Assembly: GCA_900617105.1 (NCBI GenBank)
Contig: UYFQ01000112.1
Span: forward strand, 1-60,279
Direction of reading: 5' to 3'
DNA: 60,279 nt
DNA from: Hydrurus foetidus
Taxonomy: Eukaryota
Made by a program: the position numbers and the translations under genes. Positions 7,052 through 60,063 of the stretch are shown here, piece after piece. The notes below the pieces were generated by a model. The model did no database searches. It had not been told where the DNA came from and saw only the letters and a list, made by a program, of their open reading frames with translations. Each line of letters opens with the position of its first letter. Within the stretch, counting starts at the first letter, position 1.

Positions 7052-7062
7052 ACTGTCGTTTA
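7052..7062 (-). other. Primer-binding site of Copia-1 (TAAACGACAGT), non-tRNA type, complementary to its own LTR
   Basis: Abuts the 5' LTR end (CCAACA), lacks TGG, and is the exact reverse complement of the element-sense sequence at 7184-7194. Confidence 0.8.
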
Positions 7063-7342
7063 TGTTGGAATTCTGGGCGAATTACACGGAATTTCTTCCG
7101 AGTTCCCAAACGATCCCTGCACTTCCGACTGCTAGCAACGCTCGCTCAAAAGAGAAGAAGACGTTCTATTCGGTAAGTTGGATTAAACGACAGTGACATG
7201 CTGTCGATTACATCTAGCTAGCATAACATGAGTGCGAGGGTTGCGGTCAATGTTATCGCTGAATGTACGTACACCCGTGCATGAAAAACAATCATACATC
7301 ACACAGGGTACAAGATCCTAGTCTAATCCGGATATCCCAACA
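7063..7342 (-). repeat. 5' LTR of Copia-1 (280 bp, TGTTGG...CCAACA)
   Basis: 6-bp terminal inverted repeat; direct repeat of 1440-1718. Confidence 0.95.
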
Positions 7343-13349: not shown

Positions 13350-16287
<2,938 letters not shown>

Positions 16288-33064: not shown

Positions 33065-33099
<35 letters not shown>

Positions 33100-36000
33100 T
33101 CTCTACAGCAACAATTCCAAAGAAATCTCAGCACCTCTAAATCTCACATTACCTTTCTCTCCCAATCCAAACCGTATGAACATAAAATACACTTCACCCT
33201 ATCCTGCAAACTCTCCCGATGTAACACGGTATATAACTTCAGGAAGTGCACCTAGAAAAAACTCCACTCTATCGCTATTTTCAACATCAGGAAGGCCCCT
33301 TTCTTCCCCCCACTGCCCGTCCCTCCAGGGACAAAGGGGGTCGGAGTATGGTCTAAAGCCCGTTCCGGGATCCGGTCCAGGGTCCGGTCGAAAGACCGTT
33401 CCAGGGTCCACTGTAGGATTTGGATGTGCAGAAGAATTGTTACGAAGTTCAACCCGTACGTTCTCTCAGTACAGCGGAGTGACGAGTGACGATTATTGTT
33501 CTGCCAGGGACAGACAGACGAGAGTGCTGTATGCGGATAAAGAGAGAAAAGCCATGGCAGTGCGATTAATTAGTACAGCAATAGCAGCTCAGAATGTAGA
33601 GTGCAGAGATTTGATCATGCGAATGAATGTGATTCTTGAGGTAAGTACACTACAGCACGTACAATATTATCAGCACATACTATCCGTACGTACACCATAA
33701 TTTTTGTACAGCTTTAAATCTTCTAATTGTGTATCGACAGAAGATATCTCACAACCATAAATGTAAAAGAGAATCTATCTACTTGAATAAAAATCAATTT
33801 CTTTTAATTTTCAATTTCTAGATTCAATTTTAATGCATCTAATAATCCGATCCACCATCTGAAATTCGTTAGGAGAGGGAACCTTCTTGGATAGAAAAAG
33901 AAATAAACAGAAGACACGCACTTGAAGCTGCTGTAATGTACAGAGCGTACTTACGCCTTCCTCGTAGTACCACACAGTACACCGCACACACACACATGAC
34001 TGCTGAAATGTGTTGTCCTTTAGGATTGGCTTTTCAAGATCGATTGAAAATGGGGACGATTTCGGGGATTAAGGGGCCGTTTTTGAATTGTTCGAAGAGT
34101 GACGTATGTGTGGATTTATGGTGGAGAGGAACCAAAGCTAAGGCGATGAGGAAATTGGGGTGGGAGGCCTATAAAGGGATACCAGGTGAGAACTGTTATA
34201 AAAAGATTCATCTCGAATTTTAGTAGTTTTACAGTCAGTTAAATTGTTCGGATATGGATAAGGTGTTACTCTTTCTTTTTCTTCTTTTCCATTCTTGTAA
34301 AAATAAAATTTCTGTTCTTTTCATGACCTAATATAGCATCCAATATACCCCACCCCCCATAGAGTCACGAAGACTCTGTATACTCAACCACATATAATTT
34401 TAAATCATTGCCTTCTCATCTCTCTCTCTTCTTCTCCTCCTCTTTTTTTCTTTTTCGAAGGTTCATCTGGCCCGCTTTACAGGAAGAGGAGTACTGGTCG
34501 TGTTCAGACAGGGGAACCCTTCAACGTGACGATGCACAGACAAAAAGACTCACTCACTCCCATCAGCTGGTGAGTTAACTTTACTTTTTTGTTCTATATT
34601 ATGTCCCCATTCATTTTTGAAAGATTTTTTTTTTCAGTCTTGTATTTTCTTTGTTTTAATAACCGCTTAATTTATCTATTTCTTTTTTCCACTGCCAATA
34701 TTTATTATAACATACGATTATCCCAGTGCAAATTTTGAGCAATGTAAATCAACATAATGTTTTATTGTGATACTATGAATTATTATGTCAGACCAAATAC
34801 CTAAGGACACATAAGCCGTCATCTTCCAAATTCTCATTGTGTCCCTTTCTTTTCTATTTTCTGTTGACTTTTCCCTAATTTAAAGCACATTATCTACTGG
34901 AAAAATAGTATTGCATAAAATCTAAAAATTCATTTTCCATCTACGTAAGGTCTGTTTTAGAGCGAAAACTGACCATTTCGGCACTCAGAGAAATAACACC
35001 TAGTATGAGATCGATGAAATTGTACACTGACGAAAATGCAGGTCTTGTATTCTATTGCTCTAAAACTGGTACGTACTAAAATGCGTATGTGTTGGTTTGT
35101 GAAGTACGTGTGTGTTGTTTTCAAGTGCAAGTAATGGGTGTGATATTATGTTGCTGCGAGATTTGCTTCCATTTGATGGTGCTTTGATATGGCAGTGGTA
35201 TCACCCAAACAATACGAGTAACGCTACCGATCATGGATTGTTCATCGAAATGCAAAGATATTCAGTGAATAAGAGGCCACTAGTGATAATCATTTTCATA
35301 CGTCACTGACAGTATTTTCTTGACATTTAATTTTATTCCGTACGTTCAGACACGTACAGTTGTGCAGGGCGTCCTACCGAAAGTCCCTCCTCATCCCCTT
35401 GTACAGAATCCGAGCAAAAAAAAACAGCGAAGAAACTGAGCGCAAAAAGGAACGAAGTGTTGGAGAAGAAACTACAGTCAATGGAATCGACTTCTACTGG
35501 TACAACTGCAATGAAAGGAGAGAATTTGGGGGATATAGAAAAAGAGAAGGATAGAGGGAAAGAGAAAGAAGAAGAGGAGAGGGAGATGAGAATGTTGATT
35601 GGAAGTTTGATAGAAGAAAGTGACAGCGATGATGATTGTCAATTCAATCAGAATGTCTGGCTTTCTCTCAAGCCTTTACTGACTCACAAAACGAAGCAAT
35701 TTAATAGAGACAGGAGGAAAGAAAAAAAAAGTGAACTACAATATAAAAATCAATTTTCTGAAGACTTTGAACACATTAAAATATCAGAAACGATTTCTAT
35801 CAAAGAAAAACACGACAAAGAAAAAAACGAAGAAAATGTTTTTTCTGTTACAGTTCCTGGAATCGGTTTAACATCTCCAGATTTTTCAATTAATTATCTT
35901 GAAATAAACAATAATAATGCGTCACAGTTCCGGAATCAAAGGCCAAGGTCCGCACCCCAGGGTTCTCGATCCTTGGGCCCCGACAGGGCAAATCCAAAAA

Positions 36001-39000
36001 TTAATTCAACAGTACTGAAGTCAAATTTTGATCTAAAATTACCTATTCCAAAATGTTTGAAATCATCAAATCCGTCGAATACGTCACAATTTTCAAATGA
36101 CTGTTTTAGCAGTTTATTTTCTGTGACTTCGAGTGGACAGGTGTGTGGTATGGGGGGACGGAATGCGGTCCAAGGTCCACTGGAAAGAGAGCTCTTAAAT
36201 GCATTTGAAGAAAGTGAATTATCAGATGTGAGATTTGTACGTACGTGCTTTCGAAATCCACTGAACTCAACTACACTGTGCCATTATGTCGAACCGTAAC
36301 GTATTGTACTGCATGGTAATGTACTGTACTGTACTATAGTATGTAGTGTACTGTACAGCATGACATAGTACGGTACAGCACTCTCCTCAACATCATTGTG
36401 CCACTACTGCACTTTACAACTGCACTAGACTTCACACTTTCTCACCCTGCACACAGCCTGAAGACATACTAATATGACAGTCAATAGATCACCATCGAAC
36501 AATTTCCACAGTGAACTTCTCATTTTCTGTTCCAATCCTTCTCTCCAAATCAATCTTACTTGCACCTTATTTTTCCCCTCAAAACAGAGTCTGGAATCAA
36601 GTCCAAGATCCCTCAAATTCGAATCGACATTTTCCCCTCAAGAATCGGCAGAATATTTGTCACTTCTGGAATCTGTCGGGAAAAGTTCTAGATCCACTTC
36701 TGTTAGTCTCGTTCAACTTGCCCTTTGGTTGTTACAAAAAGGTAAACGTTGTTTAGTATTGGATATTTGTGCACTGTTATAGGTCTAATAATGGACTATT
36801 TTATCATGTTTTGTGCCATATTAGTCTTCTTTAAAGATATTAGGAGAGTGCTTTTTTTATCCGCGAATAGTTGTCGGCATGGTAATCATTTAAACCTTGA
36901 CCTTGTCTTCGTCAAAGTTCTTGTGTCATCGATGTGCAATTGCCGATGATGGACATGCGATTAAACACTCTCTCCATTCTGTGCATCGTATATACTATGT
37001 ACTAAATGATCCATGGAAAAGTTCATGGTGTGGCCACTAAGCTCTTCTACTATTCTGTTCACCTATCTTCACCTCACTGAAGAATGTCTCATATGCTACC
37101 GTCTTGCTGACTGTCTGACTGTAGATGTGTATGTCTATTCCCATGCACGTTCATCTCAAGGAACATGTTCTGTTGCTGGTCCACTTTTACTGCCAGACCC
37201 ACCCCAATAAACGACAATACACACACTTTGTGTATCGTTTATATGTAAAAGTGGATGAGCAACAGAACATGTTCCTTGATCTGTCAATCCATCCTTCTAT
37301 CTGAACTCTATCAAGTCTCCCCTTCTATTTCTCGTCCTACGTGTAGACTAGATGGCATGATTAGTTATCCCTTTTGCTGCTCTGTCCGCTTGCTTTCACC
37401 TGACGGTTCTCACTTGTTGTCGCCAGATTGTCCGTCTGTCTATTTATCTGTCTATCTGTCAGTCCACATGTCTGTATATTCTATAATCAATACATGTACA
37501 CATTTTTATTCAATTCGTCTGTCACTCCTGACCAACAATCAATGCCACCCACAGGTCTTAATATCGAATCCCTCTCAGTGCTCTCTCTCGCAGAAGAAAC
37601 CCTCTCCCTCCCCTCACCCAAACATCACCAAACAGACCACCCTCTTCCCCTCTGCTCTCTTCTCATCGCCAAGCTCTCCTCTATTTATACGGGGAAATAC
37701 AAGAGCATTAAAGGAATACTAAATATTATTGAAAAAAATCCAACACCGAATGTTCTAATTCTTGCAGCGGAATATTTTGTGAAAATCAAACATGAAAAAG
37801 GTATTATATTTTAGATATTTAGTGTGTCAGAAAATTTTGTCTTTTATATTCTGTACGCCTGACATTTATTTTCGTAGGCTTCATCGAGAAATATATTCAT
37901 ACATCTAAATCGTTCTTGGCGTAACAACTGTACTCAATCACTGAGAGTTGAAAAATTCAACTTGTACTTTTTGTTTGACCAATGTAGTTGTTGAAGAAAT
38001 ATGGGACAACTTTGCGATCCTCAGTGGCTGATCATCATTGTTACGCTGGGTGCGATTTGTACCGTTGCTTGAAATCGACTTATCTATTCTCCTTCTTGCA
38101 ATTACACATCTGTCCGAAAAGTCAAATATCTTGAATAAATTCCTATTTTCTCAGTTGAATTATTGGTGCCCTTGAAGAATTTTTCAAAACAAAAGGCACT
38201 CTCTATTCTACACTTTTTCTGTATTTTTGAAATACAATCAAAGCTATTCAATTTGAAGCACTTCTTTTCTCACATTATTACATTTAATATATTAAACTCA
38301 CCTGGTGGAGTGATTTACTAATTTGCTAACTTTCTAACTCCCTTTTTTTAATCAATTCTTTTGTCTCCTTATTCCTTTTTTAGATGCGGAATATTTATAC
38401 ATCGGATCCCTCATACTGCATCCAAGGTACACACCCTACAGTATCGTGTGCTATACTTTACTATACACAGCTGATATCGACCCATACTCTCTCTCTCTTC
38501 CACCCTCCCTCTTTCTCCCTCCTTCCCTTTTCCTTCCCCCTTTTTTCCTCCCTGTTTCTCCATTCCTCTTTCCTTCTCTTTTATTTCTTATCCCTCCACA
38601 CGTCAGTTGTTCAGCGTCTCTATGGGGATATGCACACCTTCTAATAGGAAAGGGAAATCACCGAACTGCAACAAGATATCTCACACGGGTATCTTATACA
38701 ATCTCATACCAAATCTCGATACAATTTTTTCTTTTTTTGTATTATTGAAAACACATTTGTCGCGATATTAGGTTTGTGAGCCCCTCCTTATACTAAATAT
38801 TTTCAAGCAACACACATACGATGATTCTTATCTTCTATCTCATAATAAGCATCAACAGAATATTACTCTGACAGGACTTTGTTTTACTTCCCATGTTGCT
38901 TTTGATGATTTTATTCCGTATTGCTATTGATTATTTATACCGTATTGATATTGAATACTTGGTACCATAGATACCGGAGGGTGCTCCGGAGTACCCGTCA

Positions 39001-39283
39001 TCCCGTGTAGTACTGGCATGGCTAAAAGAATTGACAATCGATCATACAGATATAGGTAAGAGAAATTGGAGATGTGGAATTGTACTCTATTCCACTAAGT
39101 ATTTATTAAAGAAAGAGAATACATACATACATACATACATGCATACATACATACATACATACATACATACATACATACATACATACATACATACATACAT
39201 ACATACATACATACATACATACATACATACATACATACATACATACATACATACATACATACATACATACATACATACATACA

Positions 39284-39315
<32 letters not shown>

Positions 39316-42300
39316 CATACATACATACATACATACATACATACATACATACATACATACATACATACATACATACATACATACATACATACATACATAC
39401 ATACATACACACAAATGCATACATACATACATACACACATTCACTGACGATTCCATCTCCCATTTCAACGCTTTGTAGACTGCAGTGTCGCAGCGGATAC
39501 TCTCCTCGCATCCTTGAAGTTAGCAGTGCAAGTTGGTAAGATCTCACGTACTGGTTGAATGTTTAGTTCAATAATTACGTTTTGAGTTAACTCGAAGATG
39601 ATGCGAATGTGATACTTATTTTCCTACCTCCTACGTAATTATGTGGTAAGATGCAACATTATTTTTATCAGTGTAGTGCAGTGTAGTGTAGTGTAGTGTA
39701 GTGTAGTGTAGTGTAGTGTAGTGCAGTGTAGTGTAGTGTAGTGTAGTGTAGTGTAGTGTAGTGCAGTGCAGTGTAGTGTATTGCAGTATCGTGTAGAGTA
39801 GTGTATTGAAGTGGAGTTTAGGGTAGGGTAGTGTATTGTAGTGTAGTGTAGTGTAGTGTAGTGTAGTGCAGTGAAGTTTAGTGCGGTGTGTAATAATCTC
39901 AATGATACATATTCTGTTGGAGTAATGATGACGCATCAAATACATACCAAATAAACAATAGGAAATAGAGTTTGTCAGCTCTTTCTCCCATCCACTATAA
40001 CTGCACTAATGGAGAGCTTTCTTTAATTCTTAATGTTTCGAAAAATACATTATGTACGGTAAACTCATCCTTCTTATTGCACACTATGCTCTCTCTTTTC
40101 CCAGGTGTCAAGAATACTCGATGGCTGTCCATGGCATGGCACGCTCTAGGTCGGTAATCATACGATACGTGGCATGGCATGATATGGGATGATGTGACAT
40201 CACACTTTATGTGGCATCATACTTAGCCACTATATGACATAATGTGGTCTGATATGATTTGACTTGATGTGAATTGAGCCTGTTACTTCCAGTAGAGCGC
40301 AACACGTAAATGAGATGTAGTGCAGCACTTAATTATACAACTCTGCTCTACACTTTATTGTACTATACATTACGTTGTACAACACTAGACTACACTGCAC
40401 TATACTATACTATACTACACTACACTACACCTCACTACAATGTGTTACACAATGCTTAACAACACCATACTACACTGTGCCATATTGCACTACGCGTCAT
40501 GATTGTATATTAAACTGTATCATACCATACCATACCATACCATACCATACCATACCATACCATACCATACCATACCATACCATACCATACCATACCATAC
40601 CATACTATACCATACCATACCATACCATACCATACCATACTATACCATACCACATATATACTCTATTTTCCTTCCACATCCCAAGATCGTCCTCGCTCCA
40701 CTACGCCAGACTCCACCCCATCAGACACGTCACATCTTAACTCCCCCCACCCCGTAAACCGCCTACACCTTACAGGCCATTACTACCACATACGGCGCAT
40801 CAGCGGTTTAGCGCTCACCTGCTATGATAGGGCCCTCGAAAACGACCCCCATAACGGTCCCGCCCTGCTTCTCCGCTGTCTCCTTCCTCAACCTTCCTTA
40901 CCCTTGGAAGGTGGAACTAGAACTCACATTCCAGGAGATGGAATGGGGGATCCTTTGTAAGTCGTGCAAATTGTAAATTACCATTGCATTTTCTGTGTCA
41001 TTCTTACTGCATGATACTACCATGGTTTGATGAAAACAAAAACTTTCAATAGAATGAATTTGTACATGTATTTGTGAACGTCTCTATTTGATCAATTTAG
41101 AACCTTTGTTGAATCTTCGTCTTTGCTGAGACTCGCTTCAAATATCGATTGAATTGATTCACAGTCCTGCCCATAATCGCTAATCATTAGCTGTCTTCAC
41201 CGCGTTTAGCCATTCAATATTCTGTCATTTTTCTTTTCTCTTCTTTTCTTTTCCTTTCCTTTACCTTACCTTACCTTACCTTACCTTACCTTACCTTACC
41301 TTACCTTACCTTACCTTACCTTACCTTACCTTACCTTGCTTTTCTCGTCCCTTCTTTGTATCCAACCCTTTAACTCCACCGCTCCCTCCCCCTCCTTATC
41401 GATGCAGCCACACACACACAACGCAGTCAACAGCTCCCTCCACTCCCTCTTTCTCTACCTCTTCCACATCATCTTTCTTCCGGTGCTCTATATCTCTCTT
41501 GGGAGGGGAGACGAGATGGGTGGGATTGATCACACAAGCAGAGGTACGTTGTGTTGTGTTGCGTCGTGTTGTGTCGTGTTGTATTGTATTGTGTTGTGTT
41601 GTGTTGTGTTGTGTTGTGTTGTGTTGTGTTGTGTTGTGTTGTGTTGTGTTGTGTTGTGTTGTGTTGTGTTGTGTTGTGTTGTGTGTGGAGTGTGTTGTGT
41701 TGTGGTGTGGTGTGGTGTGTTGTGTTGTGGTGTGTTGTGTGTGTGGTGTGGTGTTGTGTTGTGGTGTGGTGTGGTGTGGTGTGGTGTGGAGTGGAGTGGT
41801 GTGGTTTGGTTTGGTATGGTGTGGTATGGTGTTGTGTTGTGGTGTGGTGTGTCATTGTACGTTACTTCATGGAGCGTATGTTGTGTTTTTCACTCACACT
41901 CACTTCCGTGTCCATATTTTGACATCATCTGGTGCCTCACCTTCAATTCATATTCATTAATATCTGCTAAATAAAGTGATCGGTCATAGGACGCACATTT
42001 GTTTTTGTATTATACCTTCTTATGGAATGCATTTTTAATATCAGAAATATACTAGATAACTCAACTGCAAAAGTCTAGTACTTCCAGATATTTGCAGTAA
42101 ATGAAAAATGGTCATCGATTTCAATAGCAACACCACAGATAACTAAATGTAATTCAATATTATTTAATTTTATCTACCATCTAATGCTTTCAGTTTGTGC
42201 TGTGTGAGTTGGGCGATGCAGATCAATGCGAAGCATTGATGAGACAGGCAGCAGGCTTATCTCCTTCATTCTCTCCCTCCTCTTCCTTTTCCTCTTTTCC

Positions 42301-45300
42301 TTCTTCTCCTTCTCCTTCTCCTTCCAATAGAGCATCTCCACTTATCATGTCATCCACAACACCTCCTCCCTCTTCCTTTCCTTCTTCTCCCTTCTCTTCC
42401 TCTTCCACTCCCTCTTCTTCCTCGTCCTCTATATGGCCAACAATAGCACTAGCTCATTTTTATTTGTACGTACGTGGCGACGCACGTACCTCCATACAAT
42501 TGCTAAAAAGAACAATTGAATTAAGAAATAAAGCAGACATGCGTAATTTACCAAAATTTTCAAATACTGAAAAACTTCAAATTATAAATTCCAAAAGTTT
42601 AAAACACGCCAAGATTTTGCTCATGAAAAAAAATTGCACTTTAAATAGAAATAATGATAATAACTATAATCGTGGGAATAAGTATAGCGAATTCTCGAAT
42701 GGTGATGATATTGACGATTTGGATTCTTCCGATGAGAACATTCCAGACTTGACCCAAAGTCACATTCACATTCCAGATAATAGTCCAAGATCCATAGAGG
42801 ATTATGAAAGGTGAGGAGTACAAAGCAACTTGATAATTGTTCCGTGGTGTAATTTTCAATAATATTAGATAGTAAATGTTACGTCAGATTCAAGTCTGTT
42901 TTGCATCAAGAAATATAACATTTTGTTGATTTATTTGATGATATTTCATGTGACTTTATATGTCTATTGAAATGTATAAACAATTCGATATTTTCTATAC
43001 CATTCAATATGAAATACAGATTCTTTTGTTTCCACCTGTATCTAGTACCTTGTGAATGACTCACACATTACCTTCAATGAAATGCAGCCACTTCACAATC
43101 CACAAAAAAAGCGTCACAATCCAATTGATTGGTCTATTGCCCAAGTGTAACTCAATGTAGTTGCCAAATTGAATCAAAATGAATTGAATTGAATTGAATT
43201 GAATTGAATTGAATTGAATTGAATTGAATTGAATTGGATTGAATTGAATTGAATTGAATTGAATTGAATTGAATTGAATTGAATTGAATTGAATTAAATT
43301 AAATAAAAATAAAATAAATTGAAATAAAATAAATGGCATAAAATCAAATCACACAGGAACAATGAGGACGTTGCACTGCACACACTCCTCTCCTTCTCGT
43401 TCCTCCAAATAGATGACGTGATATCTGCCAGTACCCACTGCAAACGGGCTTTAGACTTTGACCCCTTCTCCTCTCCTGCCCACAGATGCTCTGCATACAT
43501 TGCTCTGAGAATGTACGTACAGAGAGAAACGATATTTTTGTGTGATTATTATTGTTTCCTGCAGTGTGTAATAGTGCAAGATAAACATCTTTAAGCATTG
43601 AAACGTAATTAGAGTGCGACAATTAAGTGATAGAGTAGAAGATGATATGACATCATGTGCCATGATGCAACAACATAAGTCACATATTGTGATTTAATAC
43701 ATGGCAATATTTCTTGACATGGCATTGCACGCAATAGGACAAAATGATTTAACAAATTAATTCAACATAACTACTGCTATCACAGACAACAAACAAAAAG
43801 TACAGCACAAGCACTCGAAGAAAAAGCCCGTCTACCCCCGGGCATTATGTTAAGTGGGGAGGTCGTATCCATGATACTTCCCTTGTCCCTTGCTTTCAGG
43901 TGACATTTCATTTACACTTGATTTATCAATTTTACACCGTTTCTAATGGAGATTCTATTTTTTTTAAAGTTCATGTTTCGAATCGGAGTAATTTATCGAG
44001 AGTTATTTTCCGCTATGAAGTACTGTATTGTATTACATTATATTGTATTATATTGTGTTGTGTTGTGTTGTATTGTATTGTATTGTATTGTATTGTATTG
44101 TATTGTATTGTATTGTATTGTATTGTATTGTATTGTATTGTATTGTATTGTATCGTATCGTATTGTATTGCATTGTGTATTGTGTTGTATTGCATCGTAT
44201 TGCATTGTGTTGTGTTGTGTTGTGTTGTGTTGTGTTGTGTTGTGTTGTGTTGTGTTGTGTTGTGTTGTGTTGTGTTGTGTTTGTATTTGTGTTGTGTTGT
44301 ATTGTGTGTTGTGTTGTATTGTGTTGTATTGTGTTGTGTTGTGTTGTGTTGTGTTGTGTTGTGTTGTGTTGTGTTGTGTTGTGTTGTGTTGTGTTGTGTT
44401 GTGTGGTATTGCGTCGTATTGTATTGTGTTGTATTGCATTGTGTATTGTGTTGTGTTGTGTTGTATTGTATTGTGTTGTGTTGTATTGTGTTGTGTTGTG
44501 TTGTGTTGTGTTGTATTGTATTGTATTGTACTGTATAGCGTAGGATGTGAGTATGAGAATGATAAGTAAGGATTTCAAAGTCATTCTTGATATTGATACA
44601 TTTTTGTGTTTTTTCAATCGATAATATCGCACAATTCATTAAATTGTTTCGCATGGTGCCTCCCACTATCGCGCACACTTGAATCGTTTCATATTTTTAC
44701 TGTGCCCACCTAACACACTTGTTCCTCCTGTTATAATGTTCCTCTCTCAGACATGCACATGGCAGTCCGTACACTTTGAGATGCTGCGCGGTACGTACGT
44801 TAAAGAGTACGTGCGAGTCTGCAAACAATCTTTCAATTAGAGCGGTGCATTAAAGAATATTTAATCAATATCGTTCTCATATTTTATTCTTTCTTTCGAT
44901 ACATTTTCACTTCACATGGTTGTGATCTATCGCCAACGTGCTTGATTCCCTAGAACATGTAGAAGTCGCGGCAATGATCAGGAACATACACTTCACTTTA
45001 CTACCATAGCATGCAGTGTTGCAATTTGGATGATAGTGGGAAATGGAAAATAGGCGAGGAATAGAAGACAGTTCTACTCAATGGGAATACGGAATACGGA
45101 ATAAGGAACAAGCAATCGTTTACTGCCACCCATTTCTTTTCGTCTTATCTTCATCTTACCTATGCGTTTGTTTTCTCAATGCATTTTTCTCTGTAGGCTT
45201 TTTCTCTGTTGAGAGGGAGGCACGTTGAAGCGTTGAAGATATTCAGAGCAGCGGACAGCGGCACAGCGCACGCACTCACCCTTAGAGCATTAGGTGCGGT

Positions 45301-47846
45301 ATCGTCTTCACTACTCTTATTCTCATTCTTCTCACTCTCTTTGTCTTTCTCTTTGTCTTTCTATTTCTATTTCTCTTTATATTTATATTAAGCATAGTTA
45401 TTTATTGCCCTTAAATCTATTGCCAATTTTTTACTACTCCCCCTCATATTTTTTATTTCCCTTTTCTTTCTTTTGATTTCCCTCTCTTCGCCCAGTGGGT
45501 TTTACTACCATTTTAAATTTCCAACTGCTTCACTCTATTTTTACATCACCTATTTTCCTCTTCTCTTCTCTTCTCTTCTCTTCTCTTCTCTTCTCTTCTC
45601 TTCTCTTCTCTTCTCTTCTCTTCTCTTCTCCATCTTTCCCCTTGCCTTCCTTCTCTTCGATTGAATTTCTGTGGCTCACTCTCTCGTGTATGAAAGAACT
45701 CTGCTCCCCTCTACTCTCCTCTGCTCCCTGTCCTATCGAATCACACTCCTTCGCACCGCACACTATTGCACACTACTTACATCCTTTCATTCCACTTACT
45801 CCTTCCTATCGACAAAAGTCTCACTTATCTAATCCTGTTCTAAAGTCTTTCAAAGTCTTCATTGTGAGGTCATCGATCTACAGCAGCAACTCTCTGTGCA
45901 TCATGTCATTGCCATAGAACTCGTCTAGCCACCCCGTCTAATGCTATTCCACTTCACTCCTCCCTCGACTCAACATCACGTTATCGCATAGCGAAGTGTA
46001 TCATACCATACCATACCATACGATACCATGCCTTGTTATCTGGTCCCATCCCACCACTCACGACCCACTCACCTCCACGTCAATGCTGCGAACATTCTCT
46101 TTAGGGCTGACTACATATCTATACGGTCAAGGCACTGCGACAGAAAAAACAAATCAAGCGATCGGATACCTCAGTCGCTGCCTCAAGCTGACTCCTCTAA
46201 ACTCTTCTGTCGATATCGATGCCTCTTTGTTGCTGGCGCAGATTTATGTAGAAGTGAGGAATTTCTCTGCGGCAAGAATGGTGCTCCAAATTGCTCTCAA
46301 AGGATCTCCAGATTGCCCTCTCCTGCTAGCTAGCCTAGCAGCAGCGGTTAGCGGCTTACGACTCATGTATGATGAACCGTATGGCGATCCTGATGAGGCG
46401 TACCGATCTCGCATTTTGTCATTGTCGAGTATTGAGGAGATTCTGGAATGGACGGATCCAGAGTCCCTCTTCTTTGCAGCGACTAATCCGCAATTGTTAC
46501 ATGAGGTGCGTATGAAAACCGAAGTAAAAGAGAGAGAAAAAGAGAAGGGGAGTTTGAAAAATGGTTATTCTGAGAGTATAGAGAATGTTCCTAGGAACTG
46601 TGCTACATTAAAATCAAGTATAAACGTTTACGCGGAACAGCGAAGAGATAACAAGAATCTGAATGATATCGAAAACAAAATTGGTGATGCGAATAGCAAT
46701 TTAAATGAATTCAAAAATTGTGGAAAATTCGTATCTCCAGATGTTTTTTACGGATTTGGAATTTACCTTCTTAATAAAGGGAAAAGAAAATTATTGGTTG
46801 AAGCCAGAAAACTTTTTACTGAAGCTGTTCGTGTATCTGTCAGTGCGATGCCTCTTGTTTCGAATGGGTGCGGGGTGAGCAGAAACGAAAATACCGAAGT
46901 AGATTGTAATAAAAATGATAGAGATAAGAATAAGAATGAAAATAAAAAAAGAAACAAAGATGTCAACACAAGTAATACTGAAAGTGAGAATGGGAGTGCA
47001 TTACCGTACAGCACACCGCACGCCCTGTCCGTTCACATGTTAGGATTTATTGCGGAAATAGAAGGAGATTTGAGGACTGCTGAAAACCTTTATTCTCACG
47101 CACTTCAAATCGATTTGAAAAAAGAACCCATACAGTACGTACAACTTCGAGGAATCGTACGTGACACTGCAAGTAACACAAGTACATATTTGACGAAGAT
47201 TTTGGAATCAAACAAAGTTGGTAAAGAAGGCAAAGTAGAGAAAAAGAAAAAGATCAAGAAAAAAAAAGATTCAACGAATAATTCATATCAAAATTTGGTG
47301 GAAAAATTTGGTGCCGGAAAAGGAGATGATCGGGAAATAATACCACGATTAGAACTACGGAATTTGCTTCATAACCGTGTATTGCGTTTACTTGAAATTC
47401 AAGATGTAGGTATGAAAGAATACATGGAGGGAATGGAGAGGTGCGGTACTTGCATTTCCATTGAAATGAATTGGAAAGAAAATTTGTTTTATTCTTTTTC
47501 TGATTGTGATGACTGGTCTTGGATGTTAAAAACAGGAATGATAAAACAAAAATTAAAAAGAAATGAAATACGACTAAAAAAGGAAGTAATAACAAATACA
47601 AAACAAATCGGCAAAATAAAAATTGATGAAAAGAGTAATTCTGGACGTAGAACATGTTCAGATTCTGCCAGTAGATTATCGAAAACGTCGTCAAATTTAT
47701 CAGATCCCCAAGGACTTGTTTCTTTATCTCCGTATAATTCATTAATAGTGAAGTCCGACAAGAAATCGAGAAGTGCAATATCCGACAATAGTGACAGGAA
47801 AGATGTCAATGGACATCATCTGTCCGCACAGCACCTATGGAAATAA
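30139..47846 (+). CDS. Very large multi-exon gene: two N-terminal WW domains, low-complexity region, TPR-like helical repeats (may be two genes)
   Basis: WDRYIDEETGFPYIVNTVSGESKW and WVEVTDNDENVYFYNR|ETEESSW; long ORFs 30627-32141, 32684-33700, 35457-36299, 42197-42814, 45996-47846; TPR-like AIGYLSRCLKL, LGFIAEIEGDLRTAENLYSHAL; GT-AG-flanked small exons in between. Confidence 0.55.
39119..39438 (+). repeat. (ACAT)n microsatellite, intronic
   Basis: Directly visible. Confidence 0.97.
39670..39871 (+). repeat. (GTGTA)n pentamer microsatellite, intronic
   Basis: Directly visible, partly degenerate. Confidence 0.95.
40521..40651 (+). repeat. (CATAC)n pentamer microsatellite, intronic
   Basis: Directly visible. 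Confidence 0.95.
41260..41337 (+). repeat. (CTTAC)n pentamer microsatellite, intronic
   Basis: Directly visible. Confidence 0.95.
41547..41851 (+). repeat. (GTGTT)n/(GTGGT)n compound pentamer microsatellite
   Basis: Directly visible; begins just after a GTACGT donor-like site. Confidence 0.95.
43181..43294 (+). repeat. (GAATT)n pentamer microsatellite
   Basis: Directly visible. Confidence 0.95.
44024..44530 (+). repeat. (TATTG)n/(TGTTG)n compound pentamer microsatellite
   Basis: Directly visible. Confidence 0.95.
45558..45629 (+). repeat. (CTTCT)n pentamer microsatellite
   Basis: Directly visible. Confidence 0.95.
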
Positions 47847-52799: not shown

Positions 52800-53097
52800 T
52801 GTTGAATATATCTGAGTATATGGCACGTACACAATGCGTGTACTTATGATTACATACAAGCGTACGGTCGAGTACGTGTGCGTACGTCGATTGGATCTGC
52901 GAGGGCTGCGAGTGCAACTGTAGTCTAGGATCGTATGTATTTGGATGGACTCGTGACTTATTCGTCGATAAGCACAGTCTAATTAACAAGTGACGACTGA
53001 TACGATAGATCTTATATCACGAGCATTGACAATCCCGAACTCACGCCGCTGTGCTCACAGTACTCCCGTCGGCCACCAGACCTCGGATTCGTCAACA
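52800..53097 (+). repeat. 5' LTR of Copia-2 (298 bp, TGTTGA...TCAACA)
   Basis: 6-bp terminal inverted repeat; direct repeat of 57663-57934. Confidence 0.93.
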
Positions 53098-53109
53098 TAA
53101 TTAGACTGT
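53098..53109 (+). other. Primer-binding site of Copia-2 (TAATTAGACTGT), non-tRNA type, complementary to its own LTR
   Basis: Abuts TCAACA; exact reverse complement of 52974-52985 (ACAGTCTAATTA). Confidence 0.8.
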
Positions 53110-53122
53110 CTCGGCATTTGAG

Positions 53123-56100
53123 ATGCCTCCAAAACGTGTTCCTGAAGTAGTGAAAAGCACAGAAGAATGCATGCTACTCTACGGAAAACACAATAACGTG
53201 ATCAAGTGGAAAGAGCACATGCAGACGATGGTAACCGAGCTCTACGGCATCATCGGGATGTTCTTTACCACGAATAAAAGATACCAACTTCCAAGAGTAT
53301 CGTACGCGGACTACTCGTCGGAAAGTGAAAGCGCCGAGTCCGTGGATGAGGACGAGGACGAGGTAGTGGACCCTGACGCACCCGCCTTATTACCAGAAAT
53401 GATCGCCATACTCGCAGCCGAGAAAGCGGCGCGAGCTACCGCGAGAGAAGCAAGAAATGGACGTAGACGGAAAATTGCCGAGAGGGCAAGAGCAAAATTC
53501 CGTGAAGACGATTACATTCAGAGGAAAAAAGACCTTAAGGCACAAAAGGAGAACGAACGTACGGTGTACCCAATGATGTGGAAACGTATGTCTCCAGCCT
53601 CACAGAGCAGGGTAAGAGAAGAGGAGCAGTACGAGCAAGCGTACTTGTCCCTGGATTGTATCCTCCTATGGTCCCTGATAAGGAAAACACATCTCACGCA
53701 CATCTTCGGGGACTCGGACCCCATGAACGACGTGAACATGCACGAACAGGAGAACAAGTACAACTCACTGAGACAGGGTGAGCGAGAGTTCATATCCACA
53801 TTCAAAGTTAGATTCGATGAACAAGTATCGGCAAACAATGGAGTAGGGGTGGCAGAGATAACGGATTCGCGAAGAGCGCTGGACTTCATCCTGAAGCTGG
53901 ACCCAAAGAGATACAAGAGGATGCACGACGACATGAAGAACGACGCACTCCGATGCGTCACTGACGCTTACCCCAAGACACTGGCGGCCGCCTACCGAAT
54001 TGCGTCTCAGTGGACGGGTACTGATCACGCCCAATACGCGGGTGCAGCAGGGAACGCCGCAGCATTCGTCACGGATGGGGCGCTGGTGACGACCAACAAG
54101 GACCCCACCGAGAAAGTACCCGGTAAGACCGGGGGTGCTAGGAAGAAGACCCCACTAAGCGACATCACATGTCACGTCTGCGGAGTTAACGGGCACTTTG
54201 CAAGAAACTGCAGCCAGCGGAAATCGTCATCAGAGAAAGCTCACGTAACCTCTACCGAGAGCCAGGATGATATTGACTCAGATGACTACGACGTAGCACT
54301 GGTTACTACAGCCGAAACGTGTCTGTTCTCGCGCTACGATATACTGCTGGATAATGAGGCATCGTTAAACATCTTCAGCAACGCAGACTTACTCACGGGA
54401 CTGAGGAAATCGGAGAGGCAAATCAACGTTGGAGGTATTCAAGTCGGCGGTGGAGTTGCCGTAACTCAGGAAGGCGATTTCGGAGAGCTAGGGAAAGTAT
54501 TTTATAGCGAATCAGCGTCGGCGAACGTCCTATCATTCGCCTCCCAAGTCGACTCTGGTGCGGCAATACGTTACGATCATCATGACGATTGTTTCACCCT
54601 TCAACCACGGAACAGTCAGAGCATCTATCGATTCGGTCGGAAGAATATACCTGGTAGCGAGGGACGCTTCTACAGCTGCGACTGGAGCGAAGTAATCAGT
54701 GAGTCGGCAATGGTAGCGACTGTAGAAAATAACGCGAAAGCGTTCACCAAGCGCGAAATTGAGCAAGCAAGGAAGGCGCGCGAGCTTTTGGCGCGCATGG
54801 GGTTTCCTACTGTGGCGCAGGCGATCGCAATAATCAACTCGGGAAGCAACTTCGAGGTGACAGCACGTGATTTCCAGATAGCCGATGCAATCTGGGGAGC
54901 AGATATTGCGTCGCTGAAAGGAAAGACAACGAAGAGAGCTACAGCCGTAGCGGACATCACTGTGAACGCGAAGATTGTCCAACAAAATCAGGTGCTCGCG
55001 ATTGATATTATGTTCATAGACAAAACTGCTACGCTAATCGGGTTAGCTACTCCGCTAGGATTGACTATCGCCTACAGCCTGAACAACCTGGACATGAAAA
55101 AAGCGGTCAGAGCAGCAGCCAATATCAAAAAGGGAATCGATCACTTTGTCGCGATGCTGGCGTCGCAGAACTTCAAGACTGCGATGATCATGAGCGATGG
55201 CGAGCGTGGAGTAACGAGCATCATTCCTGAACTCGAGGCGCTTGGAATTGAGGTGGACATTAGCGGCGCTGGAGGCCACGTAGCTAGGGTAGAAAGGCGT
55301 ATAAGGGTAATTAAAGAACGATTACGATCCTACGTCGCATATCACTTACCTTTTGCCTTATCGAGTGTGGGGATCGCCATGTGCATATTGTACTGCGTAT
55401 CGAGACTCAACTACGAACCGGCCGGAATACGGGAATGGGGCCCTAGTCCAAGAGAGGCTTTCATCGGGCGTAAGGCTGATGGAAAGAGAGACTTCAGATG
55501 TTCTTTCGGCGATTACGCGCAGTGTACAATACCCACCACTGACAACACGTTAAAGGGCAGGACGGAGGATTGCGTGGTTATGCTACCGTTGGGAAACCGT
55601 ACTGGGACCGTACGAATGATGTCACTCACCACAGGACACCTGGTGAATCGCGACCAGTTTCGAATACCACCAATGCCGCTTTCTGTTATAAAGAGGATGA
55701 ATGAGCTCGCACTTAAAGATGGGAGAGAAAAGGGGAAAGGTGATCTAGCAAAAGCGCCTACGACATACGGTATGCAGGGCGATGTGGGAGGCAGTCTACC
55801 GGACACCATCGAGACTACGACACATAACGGGATCGACCCATCGATAATTCTCAGGGACGGCGAGTATAACCCCGACCCAATAGACTACGGCGTTCCATAC
55901 GACGGAGACGAAGGGAATGGGGGTGTGAGAGAGGAGGCGATAGGTGTCAATGACACTGACTTCGCCGATGATGCTATCCCGGCATTCGTTCCACAGGGGA
56001 AGCCCAAGACCGTGGACATGGATGACCTGATACACAGCTTCGAGGGGTTGGGGTCAGGGCGGTGCGACGATGAGGGCATTGGAAGAATGGGTGAATTAAA

Positions 56101-57595
56101 CGGTGCAACGGCAAGCGCGGCGGTGAGCGGCGATAACTTGTACGAACCGCATAGCGGTGGAGTCGCGGTTGAGTCGAGTGAAACGGAGGATGAACATCAT
56201 GACAACTCGCTGAAACCAAGGCGTGAGAACATCATGCAGTTTTTCCGCAAGGGAACTAACGGTGCTGCGTTACTGACGAGGCTGTATGGCGAGCCAGGAG
56301 TCGACTGGACTGATTACGTCTTCAACATTTCAGTGAATGAAGCATTACGCACCCGTGGAAAGAACGCTGAAAGCGTCATCGAAAAAGAACTTGGACAGAT
56401 GCTGACCAAGAAAGTCTGGACCCCTGTCAATGTGAAGTTAGACGCGAAGGGTTGTGTGGTGGTAAGGTTAGATAAAGCGCTGTATGGGTGCGTAGAGTCA
56501 GCTGCACTTTGGTATGAGAATTTGCGAGCGAGCTTCTCGGATCTGGGATATACACCTAACCTTTATGACGTCTGCGTGTTCAACAGACAAAATGAGCATG
56601 GCTTGCAGTGCACTGTTGCCATTCATGTCGACGATCTACTGATCACCAGTGCATGTCCGCTGATGATAGAAGAGTTGGCGGCCGGTCTGACTAAGAGGTA
56701 TGGGGAGATCACGAGAAAGAACGGACCTGTAATGAACTACTTAGGGATGGTGTTCGACCTGACAACTCCAGGCGAAGTCAAAGTCACGATGACAGGATTC
56801 GTGGATGAGATGCTGAAGGAGTGTGGCATCACGGGAAGTGCTCGCACGCCAGCCACGGAAGGATTATTCGATGTGCGACAAAACATTAATACCGCGACTG
56901 AGCAGCAGAGAGTGACTTTCCACAGATGTGTTGCGAAAATGCTGTACTTAGCAAAGAGAGCGAGACCAGATTGCCTTACCGCGGTGTCATTCCTGGCGAC
57001 GAGAGTGAATCGGTGCACCACAGACGACCTTGTCAAGCTGCAGCGACTGATGCGATATGTGTGTGCGACCAAGGAGAGGGGAGTTGTATTCTCACCTGGG
57101 GAGTCAGGGATCAAAGTGAGTGTCCTGATAGATGCGGCATACGGGGTGCACCCAGACGGGAAGTCACACACGGGCAGTTGCGTAGTCATCGGAGAGCTAG
57201 GGGCAGTGCACTGCAAGTCATCTAAGCAGCAGATCGTGACGAAGTCAAGTACGGAGGCAGAGCTGGTAGCGCTCTCGGATTCTGCTAATCAAGCACTACA
57301 CATCAGGAACTTCGTGCTAGCGCAGGGACACCCATGCGGGCCGGTCACCATATACCAGGACAACATGTCGTGCATGGCGCTGATAGATCGAGGGCGGTCA
57401 GCGGCGGAGCGCACCAGGCACATTGCTATCAGATACTTCTGGGTGAAGGAGCGTGTAGACACAGGAGAAGCGAGAGTGGTACATTTAGGGACGAAGAAAA
57501 TGTATGCGAACATGCTGACGAAGCCACTGCAAGGGATACAGTTCCAAGAGGAGAGAAAAGGGATCACAGGGTGGAGCGATGCTGTAGTAATTTAA
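53123..57595 (+). CDS. Copia-2 gag-pol polyprotein (1490 aa) with an internal RT deletion
   Basis: CCHC knuckle CHVCGVNGHFARNC; protease LLDNEAS; integrase IDIMF/MSDGER/VERRIRVIKE; RT LDKALYG, IHVDD; RNase H IDAAY, STEAE, YQDN. Confidence 0.95.
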   Translation: MPPKRVPEVVKSTEECMLLYGKHNNVIKWKEHMQTMVTELYGIIGMFFTTNKRYQLPRVSYADYSSESESAESVDEDEDEVVDPDAPALLPEMIAILAAEKAARATAREARNGRRRKIAERARAKFREDDYIQRKKDLKAQKENERTVYPMMWKRMSPASQSRVREEEQYEQAYLSLDCILLWSLIRKTHLTHIFGDSDPMNDVNMHEQENKYNSLRQGEREFISTFKVRFDEQVSANNGVGVAEITDSRRALDFILKLDPKRYKRMHDDMKNDALRCVTDAYPKTLAAAYRIASQWTGTDHAQYAGAAGNAAAFVTDGALVTTNKDPTEKVPGKTGGARKKTPLSDITCHVCGVNGHFARNCSQRKSSSEKAHVTSTESQDDIDSDDYDVALVTTAETCLFSRYDILLDNEASLNIFSNADLLTGLRKSERQINVGGIQVGGGVAVTQEGDFGELGKVFYSESASANVLSFASQVDSGAAIRYDHHDDCFTLQPRNSQSIYRFGRKNIPGSEGRFYSCDWSEVISESAMVATVENNAKAFTKREIEQARKARELLARMGFPTVAQAIAIINSGSNFEVTARDFQIADAIWGADIASLKGKTTKRATAVADITVNAKIVQQNQVLAIDIMFIDKTATLIGLATPLGLTIAYSLNNLDMKKAVRAAANIKKGIDHFVAMLASQNFKTAMIMSDGERGVTSIIPELEALGIEVDISGAGGHVARVERRIRVIKERLRSYVAYHLPFALSSVGIAMCILYCVSRLNYEPAGIREWGPSPREAFIGRKADGKRDFRCSFGDYAQCTIPTTDNTLKGRTEDCVVMLPLGNRTGTVRMMSLTTGHLVNRDQFRIPPMPLSVIKRMNELALKDGREKGKGDLAKAPTTYGMQGDVGGSLPDTIETTTHNGIDPSIILRDGEYNPDPIDYGVPYDGDEGNGGVREEAIGVNDTDFADDAIPAFVPQGKPKTVDMDDLIHSFEGLGSGRCDDEGIGRMGELNGATASAAVSGDNLYEPHSGGVAVESSETEDEHHDNSLKPRRENIMQFFRKGTNGAALLTRLYGEPGVDWTDYVFNISVNEALRTRGKNAESVIEKELGQMLTKKVWTPVNVKLDAKGCVVVRLDKALYGCVESAALWYENLRASFSDLGYTPNLYDVCVFNRQNEHGLQCTVAIHVDDLLITSACPLMIEELAAGLTKRYGEITRKNGPVMNYLGMVFDLTTPGEVKVTMTGFVDEMLKECGITGSARTPATEGLFDVRQNINTATEQQRVTFHRCVAKMLYLAKRARPDCLTAVSFLATRVNRCTTDDLVKLQRLMRYVCATKERGVVFSPGESGIKVSVLIDAAYGVHPDGKSHTGSCVVIGELGAVHCKSSKQQIVTKSSTEAELVALSDSANQALHIRNFVLAQGHPCGPVTIYQDNMSCMALIDRGRSAAERTRHIAIRYFWVKERVDTGEARVVHLGTKKMYANMLTKPLQGIQFQEERKGITGWSDAVVI

Positions 57596-57652
57596 ACATT
57601 GGAATCTGATTGAATGCATACTAAACCTTCTGTGTGACGTTTGTGTAAGTGC

Positions 57653-57662
57653 CATAGGGGTG
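57653..57662 (+). other. Polypurine tract of Copia-2 (CATAGGGGTG)
   Basis: Directly before the 3' LTR start TGTTGA. Confidence 0.75.
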
Positions 57663-57934
57663 TGTTGAATATATCTGAGTATATGGCACTTACACAATGC
57701 GTGTACTTATGATTACATACAAGCGTACGGTCGAGTACGTGTGCGTACGTCGATTGGATCTGCGAGGGCTGCGAGTGCAACTGTAGTCTAGGATCGTATG
57801 TATTTGGATGAACTCGTGACTTATTCGTCGATAAGCACAGTCTAATTAACAAGTGACGACTGATACGATAGATCTTATATCACGAGCATTGACAATCCCG
57901 AACTCACGCCGCTGTGCTCACAGTACTCCCGTCG
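57663..57934 (+). repeat. 3' LTR of Copia-2, lacking its last 26 bp
   Basis: Identity to the 5' LTR stops abruptly after TACTCCCGTCG. Confidence 0.93.
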
Positions 57935-57944
57935 ATTGCACCCC

Positions 57945-58084
57945 GTTTCGTAAATTTCAGTTCGTAAATCTCGTTTCGTAGATTTCGTTTCGTAAATTTC
58001 AGATCGTAAATCTCCATTCGGAATTCCCGCTTCGTAACTCCCACCCCGTAAAAACCGTTACGGAAATCTCGCCTCGGAACTATC
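57945..58084 (+). repeat. Ten phased 14-bp subterminal repeats (approximate consensus GTTTCGTAAATYTC)
   Basis: CG(T/G)A core at 57949, 57963, 57977, 57991, 58005, 58019, 58033, 58047, 58061 and 58075. Confidence 0.9.
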
Positions 58085-58237
58085 ATTTTGTAACTTTCAC
58101 AACCGTTATGAAAATTAGATGTTTTTAGTGTTACCGCAGAACGTCGTTAACATACATTTCGAAATCGATTAAGTATATATAAACCTTAGCACATACAAGT
58201 TTGGAATTAGTTTCCATTCATATAGCTCTTGTCTAAC

Positions 58238-60063
58238 ATGAACGATATTCTTCCTGCTGAGTTAGATATTCTTCCTGCTGAGTTAGATATTCTTCCTGCT
58301 GAGTTAGACTTTTCTACAAAATCAACAAAAAACCAGCCACTTCTAATGTTTCGAAACAAGTTATTTGTTTGTAAGAAAAGAACTCGAAATGCTGAAGGTC
58401 AAATCATCAAGTGTTACTGGTATTGTTCTTCAGAGGCATGTACCGGAGCTCTTAATTATAGTATTGACGTCAACAATGCTTTGGCAAATGAGCTTGGGAC
58501 AGGAGGAGGTATAAACGAATTTGTTTTGACGAAACGTCACACAATTGATTTGTGCAAAGTTACTCGAAATGACATTGTGAGACGTGTTGCACGTACAAAT
58601 GTCATCAGTCAGGCAAAGCTCGGTAAGATTCGATGAAGGCAGTATTTTTGTTTAACTAAGATATGGAAGTTTATGTCATTGATGTAAAATAAAATCACTC
58701 CATCAGGAAATTCGTTGAACGTGGCCTACAATGGAGTCGTGAATCCTTTATTTCAAGCAAATCCAGAGGCTGTTGAATTGATGCAGACAGCAAGTAGCCT
58801 AAAATCAGCGTATTCAAGAGCTCAAGTTGCAAATCTACCAGCTATTCCAGTGAATGCAATCGACATTGCGATTCCTCCTGAGTACGCCAATATACAAATA
58901 GAGAATGCAGCAGATTTTGTCCCGTTTTTGATGTTCAACTATTCTTACGCCAGCGTGGTTGGTGGTCAGAGGGATTCGACTATTCTGGCATTTGGGACTG
59001 ATGCAATGTTTACTGAGCTTTGCAATGCGAGGACGGTATATATGGACGGGACGTTCAAGATATGTCCAGCCCAATTCTACCAAGTGTTTTCCATCCATTT
59101 TTTTCCTTACGACAGTAGAAGGCAAATGCCAGCTATCTACTGCCTCTTGACTGGTAAAACGGAGGAAATTTACACTAGATTCTTCCAATTCATCATTGAT
59201 AAGGCTTTGGCGATGGGCTTGATCATACGCTGGGAAAAATCGATGGCAGATTTTGAAAGCGGTTTATGGCCTGCATTACATGCAGCTTTTCCTTTACTTC
59301 TCAGAAAGGGCTGCCTATTCTATTTTATGAATGCGGTCTTTAAGTGGATTAAACAGCGTCTTCTGGTACGTTGAAGAGCAAACAATTTTCATGAACAAAA
59401 TTCGTGCTTGAAATCCGGTGTACTCACAAGTAACTCACACAAATTGCAGGTGGCATATAACGATGAAACGACAGGATTGCGTGCGGTAGTGAGAAAGTTT
59501 TTCGCCCTAGCTTTTCTTCGACCTGATCGCACTGAGGACCAAGTTGAGAACGGCGTAGAGAGATCAGATTTGGCGACAGTTTTCGATGGTTTGGTGGCTT
59601 CCCTCTACGCATTACAGAGTGAAACTCTTCCGATTGCAACATTGACTCAATTTGTGACATATTTCACGCAAACTTGGATGTCTAATCTTGTAAGGTGGAA
59701 CGTATTTCACCTTGATGACCACAGAACCAATAACGATCTTGAAGGTACATTCATTCATTCTCAAAACAAGCACTTTTATGATAAGCACTAATAAACATAA
59801 CAACTTGATCAGGCTGGCACAACAAGATGGCACTGGCTTTCAAGGCTAAAACAAACTTGTGGTCATTCATTCGAGGAATAAAGCAAGAACATATCTCAAA
59901 AGAGGTGGAGATGAGACAAATTCTCCAAGGGAATATAATCAAACCACGCCGACTCCAACAAAAGGCTAAAGAAGAACTGCTCGCGAGAATGAAAAATCTA
60001 TACATTCTGGGTGATTTAACTCCAGAGATATACAATCAAAACCTTTCAAATCGCATGCTGTAA
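58238..60063 (+). CDS. MULE transposase with N-terminal FLYWCH-like zinc finger; three introns
   Basis: YWYC....C..H; YMDGTFKICP..FYQVFSIH; MADFESG; KGCLFYF; RTNNDLEG|WHNK. Approximate introns: 58623-58706, 59366-59449, 59745-59811. Confidence 0.88.
58244..58308 (+). repeat. Coding 21-bp tandem repeat x3 (DILPAEL)
   Basis: GATATTCTTCCTGCTGAGTTA x3. Confidence 0.95.

Follow-up and report, generated by a model that had tools for sequence, protein, structure and literature searches.

In the Tf1 retrotransposon of Schizosaccharomyces pombe the RNA's first 11 nucleotides anneal to the primer-binding site (PBS), and cleavage by RNase H falls between bases 11 and 12, as described in PMC7175516; this self-priming is reported in PMC10085805 to need a three-duplex 'pretzel' structure. 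Among Ty1/copia elements, self-priming has been predicted for the plant TAR lineage, for which PMC6317226 gives a figure of 89% of 203 elements under a criterion of at least 10 bp of complementarity that begins 0-5 bp past the LTR, and refers to Capy 2005 for a previous suggestion concerning Houba and Osr-1. In fungal GalEa Copia elements the place of the PBS is taken by a palindrome and a local hairpin, and the account in PMC5445492 is that no complementary LTR sequence was found. Hairpin priming has been proposed in PMC3601003 as ancestral, preceding tRNA priming. For the diatom CoDi elements, the main-text sections of PMC2806351 and PMC2774666 make no mention of a PBS or of priming.

The window, that is, the whole stretch of 60,279 nucleotides analysed here, holds two LTR elements, Copia-1 and Copia-2. 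Copia-2 lies on the forward strand. Its 5' LTR (52800-53097, 298 bp, TGTT...AACA) forms a direct repeat with the 3' LTR (57663-57934), which is 99% identical but lacks the last 26 nucleotides; the LTR start was placed from the sequence together with the polypurine-tract junction at the 3' copy. The predicted PBS (53098-53109) abuts the 5' LTR. A polypurine tract ending GGGGTG (57652-57662) abuts the 3' LTR, a junction seen in many relatives. The interior is a single gag-PR-IN-RT-RH reading frame of 1490 residues (53123-57595) in the Copia domain order, with a Pfam RVT_2 match (E 1e-12), a domain found in Copia-1 too, and a zf-CCHC (zinc knuckle) score slightly below the Pfam cut-off. Its motifs can be labelled as a zinc knuckle at residue 350, a protease-like motif at 408, integrase at 627-723, RT at 1168 and RNase H at 1336-1462. 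TG...CA LTR ends, polypurine tract, gag-PR-IN-RT-RH order and an RVT_2-type RT, all features of Ty1/copia elements, are thus present.

Alignment of the Copia-2 RT to its two closest long relatives (P0001 and P0004) revealed an in-frame loss of 115 codons after residue 1105 (~56438). The reading frame is open despite this loss and the LTRs have stayed 99% identical, but with those codons missing this copy would need RT from another copy, and it is probably non-autonomous. With the end of the 3' LTR lost, comparison of the flanks for a target-site duplication is cut on that side. The 3' LTR stops at 57934 and is followed by short repeats (57946-58002) and a MULE-domain reading frame (58781-59374), likely a Mutator-type insertion; depth is high across 57935-59374 in sequencing runs X3 and X4.

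Copia-1 lies on the reverse strand, with a 280-bp 5' LTR (7063-7342) unrelated in sequence to that of Copia-2, a predicted PBS at 7052-7062, pol in two reading frames (integrase part and RT-RH part, 2134-5563, which share 32% and 44% identity with Copia-2) and, at 1442-1718, a 3' LTR. No target-site duplication was seen for it. Elsewhere in the window, dense arrays of 5-nt and 8-nt microsatellites (39000-46100) give rise to spurious reading frames, and several frames of 320-800 residues at 13350-14870, 23543-26930 and 30867-33700 have no Pfam match.

In abutting the 5' LTR, complementing a short stretch of it and carrying no tRNA site, the PBS of Copia-2 resembles those of Tf1/Tf2 and of the Tf1/sushi group. 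These are Ty3/gypsy chromoviruses with integrase last, whereas Copia-2 and its relatives have integrase before an RVT_2 RT and are not members of that group. The 12 nucleotides of the PBS are the exact reverse complement of 52974-52985 within the same LTR, a segment (the arm) predicted to form both the first 12 nucleotides of the RNA and the self-primer. When the LTR was dinucleotide-shuffled 20,000 times, with offsets of 0-3 allowed, a single shuffle gave a match of this length, and the arm 12-mer occurs in the window in the two LTRs only (52974 and 57837). Copia-1 has the same arrangement in different letters, its PBS (7062-7052) pairing over 11 nt with an arm at 7194-7184 (11 of 20,000 shuffles as good). 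A C precedes the arm in both elements. Arm and PBS crossed between the two elements match over just 4-5 nt.

These observations uphold the earlier note, which had described the exact complementarity in Copia-2, its counterpart next to an unrelated LTR in Copia-1, and an initiator-like CA formed by the C before each arm. Two further points need revision. The two elements had been presented as co-varying; their LTRs can be aligned over no more than 12 nt, so these two alone provide no homologous covariation, which is supplied instead by a paired change in a third element, L033 (below). The likeness noted between the arms ('AC-GTC...TTA') is true of Copia-1 and Copia-2, but a lineage-wide primer consensus of this form was rejected on comparison of 17 families.

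A protein search with Copia-2 residues 380-850 gave 98 relatives. Metagenomes contributed 6 loci with 26-30% identity, and prokaryote genome bins yielded 24, evidently retroelement contigs that had been sorted into MAGs. A first scan of genome contigs, and a scan of viral contigs with two alignments, yielded no relative. Further loci came from searches inside matching bins and of whole contigs, and DNA searches of five MAGs with both LTR regions returned L033 as the one match. Bins G001, G002, G004 and G011 contain many retrotransposon contigs (66 matches in G001), likely eukaryotic contamination. The 92 records examined comprised the two window elements and 90 loci, most of which lacked an LTR/PBS junction or belonged to other Copia groups. 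Once the duplicates L013 and L019 had been dropped, 18 related elements with a junction and upstream LTR sequence were left, both window elements included. Five more distant Copia elements served as controls.

Complementarity of the PBS to the element's own LTR, over 9-16 nt, was found in 17 of the 18 junctions that could be judged, with the letters changing from one to another; this was the check in related families for which the earlier note had called. The arms lie 62-221 nt upstream of the LTR end. The exception, L068, has a junction but a match of only 6 nt within the 99 nt of LTR available, and given the arm distances elsewhere it may be either a miss or a cut-off arm. An anchored test counted from the first base after the LTR, whose end had been set manually once the arms were already known: none of 400 shuffles equalled the 9-16 nt match in 16 families, and 3 of 400 did so in L026. 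A position-free test needs no LTR end: it compares the 75 nt upstream of the gag ATG with the 330 nt preceding them and scores the longest exact complement. Here 0 of 400 shuffles were as good in 11 of 17 families; the remainder gave 3/400 (L139), 3/200 (L142) and, in the four families where the test is weak, 14 (L033), 19 (L016), 37 (L023) and 47 (L026) of 400. Own LTR against own leader matched over 9-19 nt (median 14), as against at most 11 nt in 272 crossed pairs, 12 of which reached 10 nt or more. Arm/PBS complementarity is a real and lineage-wide feature of these elements.

The pairing is kept while the sequence is not. All 17 PBS 9-mers are distinct, with on average 3.5 of 9 bases identical, and the only features that recur across the families are a C-A-Y-W arm start and a purine at the arm 3' end. 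None of the 17 junctions has TGG at the LTR end, as the earlier note had remarked for Copia-2, and TGG occurs anywhere in the leader in one of 17. The PBS starts in all 17 with one pyrimidine and two A/T bases; the predicted primer consequently ends in a purine, which possibly reflects an RNase H cleavage preference.

A paired change was found in L033, a close relative that aligns to the Copia-2 R-U5-PBS-gag region. One base is gone from its LTR arm and the partner base is gone from its PBS, with a perfect 10-bp duplex kept. A single mutation copied from primer to PBS would be a simpler explanation than two independent deletions.

The controls behave differently. Three of them (L029, L113 and L134) have a GGT(T/A)AT PBS, which we take to be of the half-tRNA-Met type, and match their LTRs over 4 nt only. 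The other two, L126 and L123, gave no complementarity signal, and the LTR ends of both were not located. In L029 the position-free test gave a 10-nt match (8/200 shuffles); it was discarded, since the 5' arm is located outside the LTR and the 3' arm is distant from where the LTR ends.

Several of the loci have features of their own. LTR ends can be non-canonical: that of L002 is not CA, L003 (4507 onward and 1-127) is apparently CG...CG, L004 (1-112) ends CAACG, and the control L113 (~1453-1724) apparently has TA...TA. The PBS region of L026 is itself palindromic (5116-5129), recalling the fungal GalEa hairpin site. In L014 (8501-9487) the self-complementary element adjoins eukaryotic LSU rRNA on the same contig, which could name the host group.

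If the arm is the RNA 5' end, transcription should start at its first base. CA is present at the arm start or one base upstream in 13 of the 16 families with upstream sequence (background 0.12, p ~5e-10), and all 13 of these starts read CAYW. They resemble the diatom transcription start consensus, given in PMC4686930 as CAY+1A / TCAH+1W, which would also account for the one-base wobble; for Copia-2 the predicted start is at 52974 or 52975. The contig L004 starts exactly where its arm does. Depth contributed by related LTR variants in runs X3 and X4 climbs from ~550-600 to 8,000-10,500 across 52960-52989, and three contigs rejoin at 52970-52972 after U3 stretches differing by 87-123 nt. The related LTR variants begin aligning at 52970-52975, a U3/R-like boundary. 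Among the matches listed these runs contain no variant in 52891-53015, and they contain a PBS variant at 53107 whose partner change at 52976 is absent among the matches listed. X3 and X4 are possibly the source of the window itself and hence not independent. The RNA runs X1 and X2 (0.07 and 0.05 of words) are available as contigs only, so that their pieces carry no RNA start.

In the predicted RNA fold of both window elements the arm lies on the PBS and this helix is dominant, the Copia-2 arm being paired with a probability of 0.97. The predicted arm:PBS pairing probability is 0.86-0.99 in all 17 families, three of the duplexes having an energy of only -6 to -7 kcal/mol. Flanking duplexes like those of Tf1 were not enriched across the 17 families (mean z -0.46 with p 0.13 on the U5 side, mean z 0.08 on the leader side), with z below -1.64 in 3 of 17 on the former and 0 of 17 on the latter; the energy test is coarse and could overlook short helices. 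With neither side significant overall, the Tf1 'pretzel' arrangement is not supported in this clade, and the clade's duplex of 9-16 nt compares with a Tf1 primer of 11 nt.

Taken together, the complementarity in related families, the paired loss in L033, the CA start and the lack of TGG support the self-priming reading of this Copia lineage, and we consider it highly probable on sequence grounds that Copia-2 and its relatives prime reverse transcription as Tf1 does, with their own RNA 5' end and without a tRNA. RNA polymerase II would start at the initiator-like CA (52974/52975), making the arm the 5' end of the RNA, which would then fold onto the PBS around a 112-nt loop. The element's RNase H would cut after the arm (near 52985/52986), as in Tf1, leaving a 3'-OH that points into U5, from which RT would synthesise minus-strand strong-stop DNA. 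Plus-strand synthesis would finally copy the primer back into the new PBS. Changes in the arm would in this way be written into the PBS, and this would account for the perfect matches as well as for the loss of one base from each arm of L033. For Tf1 the mechanism has been shown by experiment; in the Copia-2 clade the transcription start, cleavage and priming are inferred from sequence.

The arm/PBS helix could instead be a structural or regulatory RNA element, acting in packaging, dimerisation, translation control or as a switch that hides the primer site, with priming achieved otherwise, for example by a tRNA elsewhere or in trans by a primer from a second RNA copy. The dominance of the helix in the predicted fold and the lack of evident Tf1 flanking duplexes suit this explanation, conservation of a helix does not by itself prove cutting, and fungal GalEa Copia elements are described in PMC5445492 as having a non-tRNA hairpin at the PBS position whose mechanism is not known. 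We nevertheless regard it as improbable. The 3' arm begins at the first base after the LTR (with the ends placed by hand), which is where a primer has to lie, and the 5' arm at an initiator-like CA; the matches are perfect Watson-Crick runs, as primer copying would give; and TGG is present in only one of 17 leaders. Were this same 5' fragment to prime in trans, that would still count as self-priming.

Alternatively, the PBS might bind a host tRNA fragment or other small host RNA, the LTR arm being a copy of that primer acquired during reverse transcription. Half-tRNA priming is common in Ty1/copia elements (Osser, Bryco and Bianca; PMC6317226). Against this stand 17 different AT-rich PBSs, each matching its own LTR only, none starting with TGG, and L033, in which both arms are altered together. 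ARAGORN detected no tRNA in the window and Rfam no match there; nor did Rfam give a tRNA family in 13 junction loci, 12-mers being below its reach. By standard tRNA architecture, a half-tRNA end with the sequence of the Copia-2 arm would also need G at position 32, a CUA anticodon and a stem that does not pair. A host RNA primer is accordingly very unlikely, a good deal more so than a regulatory helix. Least credible of all is that AT-rich sequence produced the inverted repeat by chance: the arms have just 1-6 GC pairs and are AT-rich, and shuffles of larger windows sometimes reach 11-14 nt, but the explanation is refuted by the window shuffles, with the Copia-2 match equalled once in 20,000, and by the 17-family tests, in which the same geometry recurs and is absent from crossed pairs and outgroup elements.

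Returning to self-priming by the RNA 5' end, its distribution was examined in a tree of the RNase H region with 33 rows, including 12 self-complementary families. L004, L014, L016, L033 and L139 are absent from it, and P0289 was left out as its C-terminal cut fell on a very long branch and is probably not RNase H. Eleven of these 12 families form one group together with 7 unscored rows (support 92/95). L142 forms a long unresolved branch, and three control elements fall outside the clade. Copia-1 and Copia-2 belong to different subgroups within it, and an RT protein of Fragilaria crotonensis (P0288) also falls inside. The clade is marked by the RNase H motif DA[SA][YF]xVHxDxKSHTG and is found in stramenopile-like and aquatic DNA; the nearest Atlas clusters are mostly diatom, as 2 of the 3 matches listed. 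The named relatives of a neighbouring gene in the window are stramenopile: chrysophyte entries lead at 36-37%, and a brown alga, diatoms and oomycetes come after them. The host is putatively chrysophyte-like.

The last RNase H motif of Copia-2 (residues 1462-1467, ~57506) reads ANxLTK. The N position is N in 46 of 49 scored Copia-2 relatives and D in 77 of 77 sequences of the L063 set. A carboxylate of RNase H has thus been lost in one subgroup, though RNase H is the enzyme predicted to release the primer.

Among the described Ty1/copia groups, TAR (Houba and Osr-1; Tork/Fourf in GyDB) resembles these elements in that its PBS complements its own LTR, and self-priming was predicted for it by a similar sequence criterion. 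It is a lineage of plants, filed in the GyDB entry under Tork with Tnt-1, whereas the present clade comes from stramenopile-like and aquatic DNA, includes the Fragilaria protein and carries the RNase H motif given above. Self-priming in the clade may have had an origin independent of that in TAR, of which the tree includes no sequence. The earlier note had not known self-priming to be established for Copia elements; the TAR prediction was already published, however, and the idea is no novelty for Copia elements in general. The CoDi elements (Maumus 2009; GyDB branch 1) are likewise stramenopile Ty1/copia elements of ~5 kb, and the Fragilaria RT places diatom sequence inside the clade in a tree without a named CoDi sequence. 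GalEa elements share the lack of a tRNA PBS, but in the Copia-2 clade there is an LTR partner, 62-221 nt upstream of the LTR end. Our literature search, with subscription journals and database pages outside its scope, found no publication on self-priming in stramenopile Copia elements. What is proposed here is a mechanism known from elsewhere and predicted before in one other lineage of Copia, now in a clade on which the search found no report.

A broader proposal, for and against which we see the case as evenly balanced, is that a large and deep stramenopile Copia clade, with chrysophyte-like hosts and diatoms, evolved self-priming independently of both Tf1/sushi and plant TAR, through a single 5'-end:PBS duplex without the three-duplex structure. 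Since each cycle would recopy the PBS from the RNA 5' end, any PBS in the clade would record its element's transcription start, tying the primer to the host initiator motif; the model predicts each start within one base. Self-priming would also explain why tRNA-based PBS finders would overlook these elements. In the literature found, experimental proof of self-priming is confined to one Gypsy-type element and prediction to one plant Copia lineage, and cutting of an RNA:RNA duplex by a Copia RNase H becomes testable in transformable diatoms. If the reading is true, escape from tRNA priming either arose repeatedly or is old in this branch, and a self-priming Copia clade of aquatic protists would bear on the proposal, made in PMC3601003, that hairpin priming came before tRNA priming.
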